Below are positions 785 through 49,116 of a stretch of DNA of 50,657 nucleotides, one piece after another; the first letter of the stretch is position 1; the number at the start of each line of letters is the position of its first letter. Made by a program: the position numbers and the translations under genes. The notes below the pieces were generated by a model. That model saw nothing but the letters and a program-made list of their open reading frames with translations, made no database searches and had not been told where the DNA came from. The DNA lies in IMG/VR virus record IMGVR_UViG_3300012917_000005, positions 1-50,657 of that record. The stretch is one strand, 5' to 3'. Origin of the DNA: a virus (taxonomy: Duplodnaviria; Caudoviricetes).

Positions 785-1143
785 TGACATACTCAACAGG
801 ACAACCCTATGGAGATAGTCCTCCTAGTCTAGGTCTATCTAAAGTAGCTGGAGTAAGTATCGATAGTTATAAACTTCCCATTAACGATGTAGACAAAGTC
901 AGAAGGAATTTCCCCTGCTATGAAGTCAACCAATACTTCACGTTACAAGACATTCAGTCCGGAGATACTGAAGGAACTACAGACACAGATGCAGAATCAC
1001 ATGGCTCAGCCTATGGTAAACCCTCAGGAGAGTTCGGACAATCAGGAGGAGGTTATACCAAAACCTACAAAGCCTATAAGAATGCCTCTAGATCCAAAGG
1101 AGGAACCATCGGATCAATCAAAGCTCTTGGACGAGGACGTTAG
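784..1143 (+). CDS. Hypothetical protein
   Basis: TAATG-coupled start. Confidence 0.6.
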   Translation: MTYSTGQPYGDSPPSLGLSKVAGVSIDSYKLPINDVDKVRRNFPCYEVNQYFTLQDIQSGDTEGTTDTDAESHGSAYGKPSGEFGQSGGGYTKTYKAYKNASRSKGGTIGSIKALGRGR

Positions 1144-4470: not shown

Positions 4471-4586
4471 GTAAATACGCACAGAAGATTGGTAAGCTAG
4501 GGGGTAGACCTAAAAAGGAAAACCTGGCAAGCATAGGTGATAATACTATTAAAACCAGGCAAGCATCCAGTGGTCGTAGTAGGTAA
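4449..4586 (+). CDS. Small basic protein with GGRPK (AT-hook-like) motif, 45 aa
   Basis: Manual translation MAVPAKVSKYAQKIGKLGGRPKK...; AGGAG upstream. Confidence 0.55.
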   Translation: MAVPAKVSKYAQKIGKLGGRPKKENLASIGDNTIKTRQASSGRSR

Positions 4587-4599
4587 ACCAGGCAAGCAT
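4520..4599 (+). repeat. Three 15-bp direct repeats AAACCWGGCAAGCAT
   Basis: Copies start at 4520, 4552 and 4585. Confidence 0.85.
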
Positions 4600-32297: not shown

Positions 32298-32555
32298 TTA
32301 TATTTGTATTCCTTTTATGTAGTGAAATAAGAGTAGGTATAATGCTAATTGACCTAAACCTGCTATTGGTGCAAATGCAGACATGACTACAAATGTCTGT
32401 GCTATTTCCAACCATTTATCCTTCTTCTTAGATGGTTCTGGTTTCTTGGCAGAATCTTTTATTTCCTTTTCAACAGTCTTCCAAAAGTCTATTGTTTCTT
32501 TCATCTGTTGAAGAGGACTTTGTTGAGGACCGAAAGGACTTCCGTATCCATACAT
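32298..32555 (-). CDS. Small membrane protein (start revised to MYGYGS)
   Basis: GGAGG RBS; C-terminal hydrophobic segment. Confidence 0.6.
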   Translation of the reverse strand: MYGYGSPFGPQQSPLQQMKETIDFWKTVEKEIKDSAKKPEPSKKKDKWLEIAQTFVVMSAFAPIAGLGQLALYLLLFHYIKGIQI

Positions 32556-32669
32556 TGTATCCTCCATTCTAAATGGATTAACGGGGGGATGTGTCCCCCC
32601 AAACTTAAGGTGGTTGTTTGATTTGTCCAGAGTGCACATCATGTAACACGATTGCATCTCCATTAGTTA

Positions 32670-33680
32670 AAGTCCCGGACATGAGACTCTAGAAGTCTCC
32701 CTACGGTAGACAACCGTCGAGACCTTGGCTCTTGTCGCGTAGGCCGGTATAGCTTTCCAACCTCGTAAGGGGATCGTCTTCCTGGCGATACGCTTCTCTA
32801 CATCGAGAGGTCTGATGTGTTTGTTCCAGGTTTACTCCCACCGAGTAGTTTTATGATGGGCGTTCCGGCTGGTTCGTTTCCCAGTCCCCGGTTATACCAG
32901 TGTACTTAACCACTGCGTCTCTTTAGATCATTCATCTGTTCATCACAGATCGGCGATCTCTGTAGAGTCTTCGATACTGAGACATCATTCCAGATGACAT
33001 TTTCACGCCTAATGGAAGCGCTAGTCAAACAGTCAAGATCAACTCTTCAGAAGAGTGTCTACTTGCTAATGATGTTACTGCTCAGTCTTTTCAGATCAAC
33101 ATCCTTGTTGAATACAGACCACAGGTTGTTCGGTCTTACAACATCTCTGGAGTTGCAATCCAGCGCATCCGATCACATGGTACTCGCTCTAAACCAATTC
33201 CGAGTTCGACACTTATCTGGTGTCCTCATGAGCGTACCGTTGCTTGTCTGCCACCGTGGCCATATCAAGGTTTAGATCTTACTTGTCCTAATACTAGATC
33301 GTACTTTCACTCAAGAAGGATTTGAACCTTCTATTTATACCAGTTAAGTCTGAGTTACTGTAAGGAGCTACACATCTCCTTAGGATACTAATATTAGTCC
33401 TGCTTATGCTTCTCTGTCAGTTAGACAGTGACTACGGTATCTCCACTAGTCCTTTGCCGTCTCACAGTTTGGACCCTGTGTTCTAGACTAAGCTGACTGA
33501 TCACGTCTGTCACCGGAGGTCTAGATTTGGATACGGTTCAGTCCTACTTCCTTATATTTTAACCTCCATGTAAGGATACACGGGCCTACTTAGCGCTCTC
33601 CTACTGTATAGCCCTCAAAAGCTAGTACGTTACTCACGTAAACGAACCGTGCCTTCCGTACATTTGTTTACAGGAGCGCT
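32670..33680 (-). ncRNA. Putative ~1 kb highly structured non-coding RNA
   Basis: No credible ORF; about 20 stems seen by eye; most G-U pairs favour the - strand; embedded T-arm GAAGGTTCAAATCCTTC. Confidence 0.75.
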
Positions 33681-33697
33681 TATCGAGAGAGAGGTCA

Positions 33698-34006
33698 TCA
33701 CTCCTCTGTTGGTCTCTTCCAAGGAAGAGCTGTGGATGTTTCTCCACTACTCTCGGATCTGTCTGCTGGCCACTCTCTGCCAGTATTATCTGAAGCTCGT
33801 TCGATTGGAGATCTTCTTGAGATCGGAGGACTTGCTTTCTCGACAATCTCAACAACCTCACAGATTGCACATTTCGAAGTAGTTGTATCGTTTAATTGTT
33901 TGGTAGCATATTCAATTGCCTCAGACAGTGTTGCTTTGCAACCAGGAGGTAAACCATTTTTTGATACATGTTTGATAACAACCACAGCATAGAATTTCTC
34001 GTTCAT
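33698..34006 (-). CDS. Hypothetical protein
   Basis: 102-aa ORF with AAGGTG RBS. Confidence 0.65.
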   Translation of the reverse strand: MNEKFYAVVVIKHVSKNGLPPGCKATLSEAIEYATKQLNDTTTSKCAICEVVEIVEKASPPISRRSPIERASDNTGREWPADRSESSGETSTALPWKRPTEE

Positions 34007-37968: not shown

Positions 37969-38256
37969 TGCTTGTCTCCTTTTAGAATGCCTCTAGGACT
38001 GCGTAGGAAGCTCACTGGTGAGTTATTTTACATAGGGTGCTACCCTAGTAGCCAAGAGAAAAAGTCTTCTGTGCGACCTTCCTACGTGCTTGTTATAAAT
38101 AGTGAAACAATTCAGGGGATGGTATTATGCGATACATGTAAGCACATGTTCCTGAAGGTAGACAGACAGATTTAACTGCAACTCCCGTTGCAACAATCAT
38201 AGCACCTGCAATGAAACCTAAGATAAAGGTCATTGTATATAGGAGAAATTTCTTCA

Positions 38257-42714: not shown

Positions 42715-43095
42715 CTAAGAGTTGAATAGTTCCTGTAGAGACTTTCTCTTTGGTTCTTCAGGAACAGATATCTCATCCCAGGGTGGTTTATCTTTTGTAC
42801 GTGGTACAAGGTCATCGATAGACCACACCTTAGCATACTTCTCATATAGATAGTATCGTTCGTCGTTGGTTATCTTCCCTTCTAGGTAAGTCTTATCTAC
42901 CTGTTCGAGGAATAGATCAGCTACGATAGTCTCTAATTCTTTATCTCTTTCCGGAGTCATATTGTATTTCCTCTTAAGTCTCTTCCTGTAAAAGTAAGGA
43001 ATGAATTGATAATAAGAAACAATGTTTCTAATCATATAGTATATAAGTACAGCTAACATGCCGAAGGCTACTATTAGTCCATACTCTTCACGCAT
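42715..43095 (-). CDS. Membrane-anchored hypothetical protein (start revised to MREEYG)
   Basis: GGAG RBS; the longer ORF would overlap the tRNA. Confidence 0.7.
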   Translation of the reverse strand: MREEYGLIVAFGMLAVLIYYMIRNIVSYYQFIPYFYRKRLKRKYNMTPERDKELETIVADLFLEQVDKTYLEGKITNDERYYLYEKYAKVWSIDDLVPRTKDKPPWDEISVPEEPKRKSLQELFNS

Positions 43096-43109
43096 GTTAG
43101 TTCTCCGTA

Positions 43110-43216
43110 TATAGGTGGACCGCTGGGTGTTTACCTTTCTATTGCCACGTATCTGATACAAGCCAACACCAAATAGCTCGTATAAGCTAGCAAGAGGGTA
43201 CAGCGGTCCGCTTATA
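43110..43216. ncRNA. Structured RNA-like element with a possible pseudoknot
   Basis: 16-bp closing stem, internal hairpins, GGTGTT/AACACC complement. Confidence 0.5.
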
Positions 43217-43223
43217 GTCGGTG

Positions 43224-43310
43224 TGGTGCTCTCAGCCAGACTTGAACTGGCACGGTCATACGACCATCGGATTTTAAGTCCGATGCGTCTACCTATTTCG
43301 CCATGAGAGC
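43224..43310 (-). tRNA. trnL: tRNA-Leu (anticodon UAA)
   Basis: GCTCTCATGGCGAAATAGGTAGACGCATCGGAC-TTAAAA-TCCGATGGTCGTATGACCGTGCCAGTTCAAGTCTGGCTGAGAGCACCA; cloverleaf with long variable arm and encoded CCA. Confidence 0.96.
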
Positions 43311-43498
43311 TAGATAAGAAACCAGGTTGCACGAGAAGCTTGGCAACTCTCATACGATCAGTCCGTATGGCAACCTGGAATAAGAACTCCGGTGGGAGTC
43401 ACAGACGCCGCTATTGCTCGTACCTGTTTCTCAACCACCGGAGTCTGCTCCGTAATGTGGGTTCTACGGAGACTAACATAGTGCACGGTATCTGAGGA

Positions 43499-44088: not shown

Positions 44089-44629
44089 TGGAGTTCCTCA
44101 CAGGGTTTTGTTTAAGCCATTCTTTTTCAGGAGAAGTTGTTCCTAAGATTAAACCTTTAGTTCCCTCCGGAGGAACCAACGTCCACCATTCCTTACAGAT
44201 AGCACATGTGCAGCTATAAGGATGGTTACTTGCTTTGTGAAATCTTTCTAACTTCTTCTTGTTCATAGAGTGAGAACCTCTCTGGATGAACATATTCAAC
44301 AGTACTTCCACCAGGGTCCATACATTGGAATCCTGATGGTGAGGAACATCTAGGACAAGCAACAATAAGCATGTCTCTCCATTTCAGTCTGCTCTTCTCA
44401 CCCATGTTACTCTCTCCGTATTATTAGAAAATGTGGACCATACCTATTGGTATAGTAGTCACGAAACCAACGAGCATTGGCTAAGTTCATCCAACAAATA
44501 CACATCGTTTGTTCGCTACGAATGTCTTCGACATTGTAGTTTCCGAATGCATACTTTGGCCTAGGTCTTTCTACCCAACGTTCTAATCTGTCCACTGGTT
44601 TTCTCCTCAGTTGAATTCCCAGTGTCATA

Positions 44630-44657
44630 ATTATAACATAGTAGATAGTTAAGTCAA
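44630..44657 (-). promoter_or_regulatory. Sigma70-type promoter
   Basis: TTGACT-N16-TATAAT with TG extension. Confidence 0.7.
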
Positions 44658-44999
44658 GGACTCAAGTCTCTTATCTTAGCTTTTAATACAATATTCTCAT
44701 GTTCTAGTCTTTTAACTTCTTCAGTTAATTGTTTTAACAATCTTCCTACTTCTATGAAATCTATACGTTGAGCGATACTCATTATACGATGAGAGATAAG
44801 CTCAGCTTTCTGAACTAATGTGTTCATGTAAAGTCTCCTTTTACTGAATCAATCATACCACGATTTTCTGCAATTTTTCTAGGACTGCCTCCTTCAATAC
44901 CTATTATTTCTAATAATTCTATTGCTTGATCTGGTGTTATTTCTTCACCTTTAAACATGAATAATATCTCTAAAAATTGTTCTTCAGAGAAGGTTATGT

Positions 45000-45233
45000 T
45001 CATACATAGTCTCCATCGACTAACCAACCACCTTCAGGCCAGAACTTCCTAGTTCTTTCCATTATGTCAGCAGATATCCTACGATATCGCTCTGGTTCTA
45101 TCTCATCCGGAGAACACATGTTCTCTATGACACATATCTGTTCTCCTTCATCCCAGAAGACTCTAGTAATGGTATAGTTACCTTTACCAGATATGTTTAC
45201 GTAGTGTCCTCTTTGAGGAGTAGACCTAGGCAT
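45000..45233 (-). CDS. Hypothetical early protein
   Basis: GGAG RBS. Confidence 0.6.
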   Translation of the reverse strand: MPRSTPQRGHYVNISGKGNYTITRVFWDEGEQICVIENMCSPDEIEPERYRRISADIMERTRKFWPEGGWLVDGDYV

Positions 45234-45836
45234 TGAAGTCGCTCCAATTCCTCTTCTAGAGATAGAACTTCACTTTTCAGTGCGTTGATTTTATGTATGA
45301 GAACGCGTTCACGCAGTCTTAGATATTCTCTAAGAACTGTATCGCTTACTCGTTTCTGTGATCTGGATCTAGCCATTTATATTGGTTACTCCCATATGAT
45401 TTAGGATATTCCTCTTCAATCTTTTGGCTCGTCTGACTGACCCAAACCATCAAACCTATAGTTAGTGTTGGCAATATTATTGCCGCTACTAATAGCGTTA
45501 TTGTTATCCATCCCATAATCTTGACTCCATAAGTGAATGGTCTTAGCCATATCACCTTCTTTGAATTGAAGATGTCCCTGAGCGAACTTATTCATAAGTT
45601 CCTCAAGTTCCATCATTTCGCCATAGGTCAATGATCTGCATATATCGGCTATTGTCTCCAATGGATCTGTTTCCATTGAGATGGGAAAATTCTTCTTAGC
45701 ATATACTTTAGCCTTTTCAGCAGCCTCCTCACGCTCATAGCCATGACAGGTATCGCACTGTACTCTATCCTTCGGATCTTCATTAAGGGAACAGTGTCTA
45801 CTATTCTTAGTCTGCATACAATAGTATGGAGCTTGA

Positions 45837-46073: not shown

Positions 46074-46495
46074 GGTTCTATGTTCCTCTGTTGAATCTCA
46101 ATCATTTTATGGATCAGATAATCTTTCAACATCTGATCATGTGACAGTCCTTGCATTAGAAGAAAGTCATTGATTGCTTTCAGCGTAGCTGGTCTTAATA
46201 CAGGTTTGGCTAAGATCGTAAGAGCAGCATTGGAGGACTGCTTATAGGATGGCTCTTCATGCCCGTAGGAAGCTCGCTGGTAAGTTATTTTAGTATGCCC
46301 GCTACTAGGGTGCCAGCATAATTTACCTTCATGGGTGGGCATCCTACGTGTATATTTATCTGTTGCTGAATGCGGTGTCTCCCAACATACAGTACGAGCG
46401 TTGGCACATGAATATGTAATAGAAAATATAAGAGCTACAGCTAGAGTAAGAAATATCCAGTAAGATACCTCAGATAGATTATCTTTCCAAGACAT
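46070..46495 (-). CDS. Exported or membrane protein (start revised to MSWKD)
   Basis: GGAG RBS; hydrophobic stretch followed by an ANA-R cleavage-like site. Confidence 0.6.
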   Translation of the reverse strand: MSWKDNLSEVSYWIFLTLAVALIFSITYSCANARTVCWETPHSATDKYTRRMPTHEGKLCWHPSSGHTKITYQRASYGHEEPSYKQSSNAALTILAKPVLRPATLKAINDFLLMQGLSHDQMLKDYLIHKMIEIQQRNIEP

Positions 46496-47756: not shown

Positions 47757-47805
47757 GTTCTAGTCTCCCACATTCCTGGTCAGCAATTGCTTTCCCAGTA
47801 TCCCC

Positions 47806-47833
47806 AGTATAAAGGAAGGAATAATTAAGTCAA
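47806..47833 (-). promoter_or_regulatory. Sigma70-type leftward early promoter
   Basis: TTGACT-N16-TATACT; shares CCTTGACTTAA with the promoter at 44657. Confidence 0.65.
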
Positions 47834-47884
47834 GGTCTAGACAAGACTATCTTAACTTTTATTACATAATATGTAAAATAAAGC

Positions 47885-47913
47885 TTGACAAGGCTTATTC
47901 TCTTATATATATT
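47885..47913 (+). promoter_or_regulatory. Sigma70-type rightward promoter
   Basis: TTGACA-N17-TATATT. Confidence 0.7.
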
Positions 47914-47986
47914 AAGAAGACCAGTCCGATAGATAATAGATATATAGATAGCGCGTATAATACGGCGCGTATTAATAGGAGATTAT

Positions 47987-48247
47987 ATGAAGAGACCAGA
48001 GTTATTACCTACTACATTTAAAGGTAGTTTATATAAACTAACAGAAGAGTGTGGAGAGGTCTTACAAGCAATAGGTAAGCTACAAAGACATGGTATAGTT
48101 ACTAAAGATCCTAAATATGATAAGATCTATGATAATGGTTTAGATTTAATGAATGAATTAAATGATCTTAAACACTCGATTGCTGAGACAGAGAGACTAT
48201 ACCAGACAGCGGATAGAACAATTGTTAATGGACAGCCTACTGAGTAG
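47987..48247 (+). CDS. MazG-like nucleotide pyrophosphohydrolase
   Basis: EECGEVLQAIGK...ELND motif; AGGAG RBS. Confidence 0.75.
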   Translation: MKRPELLPTTFKGSLYKLTEECGEVLQAIGKLQRHGIVTKDPKYDKIYDNGLDLMNELNDLKHSIAETERLYQTADRTIVNGQPTE

Positions 48248-48357
48248 AGTCTGACCATGACGTGCGAACCAATGCGACCTATCACGATAGTGACCTGCGA
48301 AGCAGGACTACGATAGTCCTATTATAGGACTCTCAACCTATGGTTGTCACAACCTCT

Positions 48358-48391
48358 GTTCATGGTTTGAACTCTTGTTCATGTTTTGTAC
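48358..48391. promoter_or_regulatory. Tandem alphaproteobacterial LexA-box-like sites
   Basis: GTTC-ATGGTTT-GAAC and GTTC-ATGTTTT-GTAC compared with the GTTC-N7-GTTC consensus. Confidence 0.5.
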
Positions 48392-48503
48392 GTTACAGCG
48401 GTAACGCTCAAACAGAGAACAGATGAATGAGTAGGATATAAGTCTTATGTGCGACAGAACAGCACAGTCTGCTAAATCATTGGTAGATAAGGACTATTTG
48501 CAC

Positions 48504-48531
48504 TTGACACAGTAATTGATGGGTCTATGAT
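48504..48531 (+). promoter_or_regulatory. Sigma70-type promoter
   Basis: TTGACA-N16-TATGAT. Confidence 0.6.
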
Positions 48532-48637
48532 GAGGACAATAAGAAAAGGCTATGACTAGATCATAGAGTTGTTTGTCATCGTTAATCGGATCGAAGGCAT
48601 TGCCGCCACCTTGCCCGTTCAGGCAAAGGAGAAAGCA

Positions 48638-48844
48638 ATGAAAGAATACAATGAGGCTATAGGTACTCATAACGTAGTATTGCGTATTGAGTATCTATTT
48701 GTGCGTTGTTACCCCAAACATAAACTAAACCTTACCTATGTCGCGCAGTTATGGGATGAAGCTAGATCGCATGGTGCAAGATACCTCACTCAAGAGTTAG
48801 AGAATTACATCATGCAAGTAGTTAATCCGCATAGGAAAGGATAA
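48638..48844 (+). CDS. Hypothetical protein (start revised to MKEYNE)
   Basis: AAAGGAG RBS before the ATG at 48638. Confidence 0.6.
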   Translation: MKEYNEAIGTHNVVLRIEYLFVRCYPKHKLNLTYVAQLWDEARSHGARYLTQELENYIMQVVNPHRKG

Positions 48845-48848
48845 GGCA

Positions 48849-49055
48849 ATGACAGTCATATTTACTACAATCAAAGAGATAGAGGACAGTGTTCTTAGCT
48901 GTCGCCCTACTGGGAAATCTCTGTCATATGTAGAGGGTAAGTTACCTCCTCACTATCCCGTTCCTGTTATTCGTTATGTCGCAGTGCATCACGTAGATAG
49001 CATTGCTTTATTTCGTTTAACAGGTGAAGGAGCGATCTTCGAATACATGTTCTAA
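48849..49055 (+). CDS. Hypothetical protein
   Basis: AAGGA RBS. Confidence 0.6.
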   Translation: MTVIFTTIKEIEDSVLSCRPTGKSLSYVEGKLPPHYPVPVIRYVAVHHVDSIALFRLTGEGAIFEYMF

Positions 49056-49116
49056 CAACATACGACGGGCAAGATGAAGGCAATGCTTACGATCCAAAAC
49101 AGACGGAGTTACTACT

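Follow-up and report, generated by a model that had tools for sequence, protein, structure and literature searches.

To our knowledge, only a handful of bacterial and phage RNA classes exceed 500 nucleotides (nt): ribosomal RNA, RNase P, transfer-messenger RNA (tmRNA), introns, OLE, GOLLD, ROOL and HEARO. Here we describe a gene-free stretch of about 1 kb in a phage genome that may encode a further class, together with a short open reading frame (ORF) that follows it and ends in Pro-Pro-stop, hereafter the micro-ORF. The systems closest to it in kind are GOLLD and ROOL. Passages of PMC12286853, with which those of PMC12990946 agree, place both RNAs in phages and prophages near transfer RNA (tRNA) islands; passages of PMC12286853 also describe tRNAs held in some GOLLD linkers, binding of ribosomes to GOLLD in pull-downs, and nanocages of ROOL and GOLLD.

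The whole stretch of DNA analysed, the window, is the IMG/VR record IMGVR_UViG_3300012917_000005 (50,657 bp). The original prediction, made from its letters alone, had read about 1 kb of it as a giant structured non-coding RNA of the GOLLD/ROOL sort, possibly a new class. Covariation among close and distant relatives supports this proposal, and from the compared sequences we lean towards the view that the stretch encodes a structured RNA of ~1.04 kb, of the GOLLD/ROOL kind and of a class absent from Rfam 15, that acts as a folded RNA. The observations on which the proposal was built stood in part: the absence of genes, the GC content and the strand held, while the excess of stems in the single sequence and a pseudoknot did not.

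Coding content, covariation and the conserved core

The stretch lacks any credible ORF. Each of the six frames of 32664..33697 contains 14-29 stops of all three kinds, so that no alternative code or recoding opens a frame. On the minus strand only short ORFs of 30-46 aa occur, and the sole sizeable ORF, an antisense one of 93 aa at 32994..33275, is not conserved: in the closest relatives, L059 and L002 (related loci are given L numbers), it is lost and no ORF of at least 70 aa is found there on either strand. A recoded or hidden gene was rejected on these grounds. The stretch is also richer in GC (0.462 for 32671..33706) than the genome (0.386) and its two flanks (0.375 and 0.379). Nucleotide identity of the RNA to L002, L059 and L081 (75.7%, 93.9% and 73.7%, respectively) is in the range of the neighbouring genes (76-97%), which points to selection on the stretch without coding.

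Although the stretch had been described as filled with stems, these are not above chance in the window sequence by itself. The minimum free energy of 32712..33710 (minus strand) was -289.3 kcal/mol versus -276.6 ± 8.2 kcal/mol for 20 dinucleotide shuffles (z = -1.55, not significant), one of which folds as well, and the two strands fold about equally (-305.6 versus -298.8). The case for structure therefore rests on relatives, in which many of the stems prove compensatory. Seven close sequences were aligned (alignment A1: the window, L059, L116, L002 and L081, plus partial L107 and L111), revealing invariant blocks, hairpin arms swapped jointly and entire hairpins inserted or deleted. RNAalifold predicted 170 pairs in 31 helices on this alignment. 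With these pairs, 97.4% of cells were paired, compared with 33-39% when partners were slid by 1-3 columns; 31 of the 170 pairs were compensatory, that is, changed on both sides, versus 2-7 in the slid versions; and the covariation score was 0.132 versus at most 0.041, with none of 500 shuffles as high. Since the structure was predicted on the same alignment, which favours it over its slid versions, more trust can be placed in the compensatory counts. A strict scan for helices present in all sequences of A1 returned only 12, because MAFFT misaligns the variable hairpins. One helix missed by RNAalifold, GGUACGCUC/GAGCGAGUACC, has four compensatory changes, seen in L081 and L107; a model of the middle domain, R2, took this helix as its paired structure.

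Most of the individual stems first proposed carry compensatory changes, namely AGCGCT/AGCGCT with CTGTA/TACAG, CTGTC/GACAG, TAAGGAG/CTCCTTA, GGTAC-GCTC/GAGC-GA-GTACC, GACAC/GTGTC, CTGGA/TCCAG, ACTCTT/AAGAGT, ATCTGT/ACAGAT and GAGACT/AGTCTC, whereas TCTAGAC/GTCTAGA and TCAACA/TGTTGA are not retained in close relatives. The suggested pseudoknot ACGGTTC/GAACCGT found no support: in L059, L002 and L081 another sequence stands in its first arm with no compensating change, and GAACCGU forms a different covarying helix with 33441..33430. The minus-strand sense agrees with the consensus folds of the minus and plus strands (-87.05 versus -69.80 kcal/mol for the seven sequences, -217.1 versus -187.8 for the four full-length ones) and with counts of the recurrent motifs in sense and reverse orientation, all of which are one-stranded. 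On this comparative evidence, the stretch is a conserved structured RNA of the minus strand.

No similar DNA was found in GenBank phages. Through the DNA polymerase, 76 related loci were collected from IMG/VR, from genomes of mostly ~50 kb; among such polymerase-related loci, nhmmer with the window RNA gave full-length matches only in L059 and L002 (91% and 78% identity to the window in a three-way alignment). A profile of these three sequences picked out one short, nearly invariant block, a core of 20-25 nt, in more distant loci. Scans with the pattern CCGGTGRCAGACGNGATCAG marked 12 stretches of viral and 36 of metagenome contigs; inspection of the flanks showed roughly half of the metagenome ones to be chance matches in GC-rich coding DNA. 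The true members form ~17 lineages, which have otherwise little in common by BLAST. In bacterial and archaeal genomes the pattern marked 24 stretches; there the core covariance model, R1, gave only weak matches (L135, 16.2 bits, partial; L144, 15.5 bits), and no host or prophage copy was found among them.

The core domain comprises 150 nt around CCGGTGRCAGACGNGATCAG / CCGGUGRCAGACGNGAUCAG. Outside the close group, R1 matched at full length in ten lineages: L123 (73.9 bits), L113 (51.2), L084 (42.8), L049 (36.3), L080 (32.2), L094 (22.2), L112 (21.4), L100 (20.4), L083 (19.9) and L119 (16.3). Later searches added L026, L010, L054 and L041. In the core alignment A3 (27 rows, 26 distinct), 92.3% of cells pair versus 26-37% when slid, 29 of 38 pairs are compensatory versus 8-14, and the covariation score is 0.255 versus at most 0.039, again with none of 500 shuffles as high. 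Inside the core motif itself, one pair is A-U in 18 rows and G-C in six. So large an effect, together with helices that show five or six pair types, leaves a real core structure as the only reasonable reading of these alignments. A MAFFT alignment of 11 distant lineages was uninformative beyond the core. Across distant lineages, further motifs keep one order, namely GAAAGUACGA, UGGCAGAC and a hairpin with loop UCUCAUUAG and covarying stems. The comparisons show a widely conserved 5' part (5' hairpin, GGAGGCUAAAA loop and the 150-nt core) and more variable later domains.

Rfam 15 was searched at gathering score and at permissive thresholds with the window and 33 related loci, and no family other than tRNAs was matched. 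At gathering score the window gave only a distant tRNA-Leu, 12 family loci gave nothing and eight further clade loci only an unrelated tRNA. At an expectation value (E) of at most 10, 2 kb of the window gave nine chance-level matches, the best to SNORD78 (22.1 bits versus a gathering score of 38) and none to GOLLD, ROOL, OLE, HEARO or introns; L094 gave 0 matches at E <=10, and 13 loci at E <=1 gave only the tRNA of L112 described below. GOLLD (RF01998), ROOL (presumably RF03087), OLE, HEARO, group I and II introns, RNase P, 6S and tmRNA were rejected in the absence of an Rfam 15 match. A likeness to RNase P, prompted by GAAAGUCCG and GAGCAAA in some relatives (for example, L094), was likewise rejected, with 0 matches at E <=10. 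A full-text literature search found no description of the RNA or the micro-ORF; passages of PMC10690425 report 8495 short candidate RNAs from IMG/VR, averaging 67 nt, and the supplementary tables of that paper might list fragments of the present RNA.

T-arm hairpins and the Pro-Pro-stop micro-ORF

Hairpins with the T-arm consensus GGUUCRAnYCC are a hallmark of the RNA and bear on the tRNA linkage that had been invoked from GOLLD and ROOL. All 15 lineage representatives carry 1-3 of them, and within 1.7 kb upstream of the micro-ORF they occur in 42 of 55 polymerase-related loci, versus 0/55 on the reverse strand, which again supports the minus-strand sense. Among 70 hits, 53 have the full 5-bp stem (three further pairs), with 23 different flanking triplets; the later domains carry 1-4 exact T-arm-type hairpins. 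In the window, one such hairpin sits in a tRNA-like minihelix (Table 1), an optional module, since it is missing in L002 and L081. ARAGORN detected no tRNA or tmRNA in the window RNA nor in the RNA regions of the lineage representatives (15/15). One lineage, L112, embeds a 74-nt tRNA-Val(CAC) at 943-1016 (plus strand) in the 3' part of the RNA, ~800 nt after the core motif; it scores 36.1 bits with the Rfam tRNA model, is also called by ARAGORN, and is accompanied in the same RNA by three additional T-arm-only hairpins.

The sole tRNA of the window phage, tRNA-Leu(UAA) at 43224-43310 (minus strand, 61.9 bits), lies 9.5 kb from the RNA. A listed ORF of 212 aa (42715..43353) is probably not a gene, because this tRNA sits inside it.

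The structured body spans 33706..32671, and beyond it lies a separate unit of micro-ORF and hairpin (32661..32583) that the original prediction had missed. A conserved CCNCCTTAA with a wobbling third base (CCA/CCG/CCT) is the end of this micro-ORF, which is led by a Shine-Dalgarno (SD) sequence and shows synonymous or conservative changes and one TAA to TGA switch in close relatives. It is found 670-1290 nt after the core motif in 18 of 22 family loci, three of the other four being short of sequence, and in 59 of 73 polymerase-related loci, 12 of the 14 without it having less than 2 kb past the polymerase gene. Every one of the 32 loci with full flanks has exactly one micro-ORF in the 6.5 kb downstream of the polymerase, as against 2/32 in the 6.5 kb upstream and 3/32 on the reverse strand. 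Among these 32 loci, R or Q stands ahead of the two prolines in 26 and the end is CCT-TAA in 27; beyond [R/Q]-Pro-Pro-stop the peptide is not conserved. The micro-ORF is followed by a G/C hairpin whose first paired base comes a median of 6 nt after the stop in 55 loci, with a median folding energy of -16.7 versus -11.1 kcal/mol for shuffles (50/55 at or below -10). Some 20-60 nt further on, a small gene begins with its SD and start; the N-terminus of its product is rich in G/P/Q.

A short SD-led ORF, a conserved position and a conserved C-terminal motif are the marks of an arrest leader, and all three are present here. Peptidyl-prolyl-tRNA is a poor substrate for release and for peptide-bond formation, TnaC being an example; Gong and colleagues, cited in PMC6238534, are said to have reported in 2001 that TnaC-peptidyl-tRNAPro resists cleavage by release factor. 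Because peptidyl-prolyl-tRNA releases poorly, a ribosome would be expected to pause at the Pro-Pro-stop and to cover the 5' arm of the hairpin. In itself the micro-ORF is a candidate arrest peptide found across this phage clade, and a full-text literature search found no such arrest peptide reported for phages.

Allowing up to four edits, the core motif is present in 18 of 55 loci, at 830-1590 nt upstream of the micro-ORF (reverse complements, 0/55). The 36 loci classed as core-minus show T-arms (26/36), GGYTAAAA (9), the UCUCAUUAG loop (7) and AAAGTAC (8), with 0-2 on the reverse strand; such relatives retain GGAGGCUAAAA, T-arms and the UCUCAUUAG hairpin, and in L025 and L069 a different central hairpin comes after GGAGGCUAAAA, with the same UCC...CAGCAA...GAGCAAA words on its flanks. 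In our reading, which we do not regard as proven, the core-minus loci are diverged homologues spread over the whole clade; how much of the clade carries a homologous core is judged from motif counts. Longer ORF-free stretches of 1.3-2.0 kb ending at a Pro-Pro-stop micro-ORF were noticed at L056 (8246-10279), L025 (12092-13520) and L033 (5214-6551). No window-type core motif and no Rfam match was found in these three, which may be larger or different versions of the RNA.

Layout of the element and its genomic setting

Table 1. Coordinates of the RNA, its parts, the micro-ORF unit and the bounding genes in the window
Feature	Coordinates	Strand	Basis or remark
Upstream 102-aa gene, bounds the RNA	33698..34006	-	Real coding gene: protein-level conservation, in-frame indel in relatives
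Large structured RNA body, 1036 nt, from 5' hairpin to last hairpin before the micro-ORF	33706..32671	-	ORF-free; 170 pairs in 31 helices
5' hairpin AGAGG-AGUGAUGA-CCUCU, overlaps stop codon of upstream gene	33689..33706	-	Covarying stem
Domain 1: closing helix AGCGCUC...GAGCGCU, inner helices, variable tip hairpin	33592..33680	-	Helices 2-5; 4 pairs changed on both sides
Hairpin with loop GGAGGUUAAAA (33567..33557); GGAGGCUAAAA in most lineages	33548..33577	-	Stem swaps
Conserved core domain; motif CCGGTGACAGACGTGATCAG (33516..33497); CUAAC-loop hairpin (33428..33414)	33411..33550	-	Covariance model R1
tRNA-like minihelix: stem ACUCAG/UUGAGU enclosing T-arm-like hairpin GAAGG-UUCAAAU-CCUUC (33331..33315)	33309..33355	-	Sequence
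Middle domain: GAUCU/AGAUC helix, GGUGGCAGAC motif, long helix GGUACGCUC/GAGCGAGUACC around GACAC/GUGUC	33172..33306	-	Alignment A5; compensatory changes in L081, L107
Chain of helices 18-26: CUGGA/UCCAG, ACUGAG..CUCAGU, AUCUGU/ACAGAU, CCCAUC/GGUGGG	32837..33180	-	RNAalifold helices
62-nt hairpin module, some relatives only	32733..32794	-	Sequence comparison
3' hairpins before the micro-ORF, helices 28-30	32671..32725	-	3 compensatory pairs
Micro-ORF VLHDVHSGQIKQPP-stop (32649..32605), SD GGAG (32661..32658)	32605..32661	-	Translation; separate from RNA body
G/C hairpin GGGGGG-ACACAU-CCCCCC, starts 4 nt past the stop, no U-tract	32583..32600	-	Helix 31; one compensatory pair
Small hairpin UCCAUU-UAG-AAUGGA, overlaps SD of downstream gene	32577..32563	-	Sequence; kept in 5 close relatives
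Downstream small gene, 85 aa, true start ATG 32555	32298..32555	-	Hydrophobic C-terminus

The stem of the 5' hairpin varies as GTAGG/CCTAC in L002 and L094, GATGG/CCATC in L084 and GACGG/CCGT in L010. In domain 1, the word GCGCTCCTGT is shared with L084, and the stem of the GGAGGUUAAAA hairpin passes among close relatives from CCTT/AAGG through CTCCG/CGGAG to CGTT/AACG. The GGAGGCUAAAA motif stands upstream of the core in many lineages, as read by eye without a tool count. The middle domain is lineage-specific, since R2 finds only five close relatives among 38 sources. Further along, the CUGGA/UCCAG hairpin is swapped to ATAGG/CCTAT in relatives, and helices 25 and 26 carry four compensatory pairs each. 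The 62-nt module stands at the same site in L081 (95% identical), elsewhere in L107, inside the tRNA-like arm (29 aligned bases, 93% identical), and is absent from L059, L002 and L116, the last of which lacks ~250 nt of the RNA. Near the 3' hairpins, other lineages have the hairpin with loop UCUCAUUAG and covarying stems.

A genome repeat search found no repeated phage promoter, and a GGGAGA start upstream of the 5' hairpin occurs in too few lineages to be usable. Co-transcription with the flanking genes is probable, because the upstream stop and the 5' hairpin lie too close together to leave space for a promoter.

CheckV rates the record as 99% complete, and the RNA stretch is present once. 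By PHROG matches the phage is podovirus-like, with structural genes on the plus strand (terminase, portal/adaptor, major head protein, tail appendage and internal virion protein) and a replication arm on the minus strand (primase/helicase, DNA polymerase I, gp2.5-like SSB, endonuclease VII-like and Cas4-domain exonuclease). The RNA lies in this replication and recombination arm, with a small gene downstream of DNA polymerase I and SSB on one side and a small membrane-type gene, followed by the Cas4-like exonuclease, on the other. In relatives, the upstream 102-aa gene ends in TAA ~20 nt ahead of the 5' hairpin; no PHROG or Pfam match was found for its product. The downstream 85-aa protein has a Gly/Pro/Gln/Tyr-rich N-terminus and is conserved across lineages, and no Pfam or PHROG family was found for it. 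The start at 32663 of a listed 121-aa ORF is not real, because indels whose lengths are not multiples of three lie between the hairpin and the SD in L002 and L081. The flanking ORFs are separate, complete genes and not exons. That the downstream small gene follows a putative arrest-type leader calls to mind leaders that sense membrane insertion.

When ORFs are counted from 100 aa upwards, the gap that contains the RNA ranks only third largest in the genome. Two other stretches, 44366-45415 (1050 nt) and 47757-49116 (1360 nt), also have no ORF of at least 100 aa, with smaller ORFs inside, and Rfam at gathering score returned nothing in either. Elsewhere in the genome, two 30-nt near-repeats (family D14, 77% identical) stand side by side at 4537-4566 and 4570-4599 on the plus strand, in a 260-bp gene-free gap (ORF end 4470, next ORF start 4732), and are possibly a regulatory or binding site. 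A 29-nt repeat (family D13, 93% identical) occurs at 38002-38030 and 46264-46292 within the minus-strand gene arm; it includes a short hairpin CTCAC..GTGAG followed by TTATTTTA on the plus strand, and the copies are possibly terminators or a shared regulatory site.

Readings of the element and comparison with known systems

Taken as a whole, the explanation we find best, and to which we give modest preference, is that the RNA is a clade-wide element of ~50-kb soil podovirus-like phages. It would be co-transcribed with the flanking replication genes and function independently as a folded molecule, a role also supposed for GOLLD and ROOL. As a scaffold or assembly, it would offer tRNA-elbow-like modules, during infection, to partners that bind tRNA or ribosomes. 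The micro-ORF would be a translation-arrest leader, its Pro-Pro-tRNA slow to release at the stop, and a ribosome parked there would cover the 5' arm of the G/C hairpin and set the expression of the downstream genes or the fate of the RNA 3' end.

Several points weigh against this explanation. The 17 runs listed as containing the sequence are all DNA metagenomes, with no RNA run among them; a scan for promoters and terminators stayed at background; and the single-sequence folding energy is no better than that of shuffles. The core alignment A3 was fitted to its model, which leans it towards structure, and includes five weak rows (E >=1). Sharing with distant lineages has been demonstrated for the 5' core only, and since the middle-domain model is confined to close relatives, some of the 1 kb could be separate elements, or filler peculiar to a lineage. 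Stalling at Pro-Pro-stop is predicted from the general behaviour of peptidyl-prolyl-tRNA, and the invariable linkage to the micro-ORF fits a cis-acting leader no less than a trans-acting RNA.

A giant cis-acting leader is the main rival. Structure, micro-ORF and hairpin, 1.1 kb in all, would then regulate read-through or translation of the downstream membrane-protein and nuclease genes, with no role for the RNA of its own, in a manner akin to the mgtA/mgtL or tna (TnaC) leaders, though far larger. The data do not separate this reading from that of an RNA acting as a folded molecule, and we consider it rather unlikely while taking it seriously. It would account for the micro-ORF that follows the RNA in all 32 full-flank loci (59/73 overall), for the lack of a terminator between RNA and micro-ORF, for a G/C hairpin that begins within the ribosome footprint of the stop codon and for a small hairpin over the SD of the downstream gene. 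RNAalifold helix 1 moreover pairs the 5' end (33690..33687) with the SD region of the micro-ORF (32660..32657), with one compensatory change. This long-range helix, however, amounts to four weakly supported pairs, and known leaders need far less than 1 kb of RNA equipped with T-arm modules and with invariant motifs in loops and junctions; we know of none this large. The variable modules, such as the tRNA insert of L112 and the 62-nt module, resemble ornaments of a stand-alone RNA. A bolder reading, which we think quite unlikely, joins RNA and micro-ORF in one machine that parks a host ribosome, as an RNA-ribosome particle for capture, sequestration or reprogramming or for protection or localisation of the RNA; the core might further be a new ribozyme acting on tRNA-like modules.

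The tRNA-like parts could also make the RNA a decoy, whose T-arm or elbow mimics would absorb or redirect tRNA-recognising host factors such as anticodon nucleases of anti-phage defence, RNase P, TruB/TrmA or ribosomal sites. We hold this to be decidedly improbable: exact T-arm consensus hairpins, on the sense strand only, in 42 of 55 loci, the minihelix of the window and the embedded tRNA of L112 would suit a decoy, but no anticodon-arm mimic was seen, ARAGORN found no tRNA in 15/15 RNA regions, the core domain, where conservation is highest, does not resemble a tRNA, L002 is without a T-arm at the window position and 13/55 loci show none. We give very little credence to the idea that the stretch acts in the replication arm as DNA, for instance as an origin or primer-forming region, and not as a functional RNA. 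The position among DNA polymerase I, SSB, primase/helicase and nucleases and the lack of an ORF would accord with it; yet the stretch exceeds the genome in GC content instead of being AT-rich, a search turned up no iterons or repeats, and dozens of compensatory changes, G-U pairs tolerated on one strand only and one-stranded motifs point to RNA. Just as far-fetched, in our judgement, is the idea that the RNA belongs to GOLLD or ROOL but has diverged very far, or that it is a tRNA array that has decayed and has no function of its own. An RNA that is phage-borne, large and tRNA-associated, with a conserved and a variable part, recalls GOLLD as described in passages of PMC12286853, and T-arm remnants could derive from tRNA genes; against this, neither family was matched at E <=10 (window, L094) or E <=1 (13 loci), the conserved part is 5' here and not 3' as those passages give it for GOLLD, and conservation and covariation extend outside any tRNA-like part.

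If one molecule is indeed transcribed, the family would exceed typical GOLLD and ROOL sizes, ROOL being roughly 580 nt long. It is widespread in uncultured soil phages, its sharply conserved core suits structural work and its tRNA-like parts are modular, while the constant pairing with a Pro-Pro-stop micro-ORF offers a testable link of a giant RNA to the ribosome. Each known large RNA class has opened new biology or RNA architecture, the latest being the ROOL and GOLLD nanocages (passages of PMC12286853).

Compared with known systems, the RNA stands nearest to GOLLD, which in passages of PMC12286853 and PMC12990946 is likewise large (>800 nt) and borne by phages or prophages. Those passages associate GOLLD with tRNAs, sometimes embedded ones; the present RNA shows T-arm hairpins in most loci and one embedded tRNA-Val, in L112. 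GOLLD also has conserved and variable parts, as here, the conserved part being 3' in GOLLD according to those passages and 5' in the present RNA. The latter differs in matching no Rfam model, in having no adjoining tRNA island (the window tRNA-Leu is 9.5 kb off) and in being followed by a Pro-Pro-stop micro-ORF, which those passages do not report for GOLLD. From ROOL it differs in lacking an Rfam match, in its motifs and in being about twice the size given above. Passages of PMC12286853 describe ROOL too as a large RNA encoded by phages and prophages; its fold is complex, no protein is known to partner it, and tRNA islands often lie nearby. With tRNA, tmRNA and viral tRNA-like structures the RNA has the T-arm consensus GGUUCRAnYCC and 5-bp covarying stems in common, and in the window the T-arm is stacked on an acceptor-like stem; unlike tRNA and tmRNA, it has no anticodon arm and no 3' CCA context, and its micro-ORF has its own SD and start codon, unlike the tag frame of tmRNA. 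TnaC-type and polyproline leaders (tna, mgtL, RAPP-motif) are likewise short SD-led ORFs with Pro last before the stop, upstream of regulated genes; the present micro-ORF is distinguished from them by being phage-encoded, joined to a 1-kb structured RNA and conserved only in its [R/Q]PP-stop.

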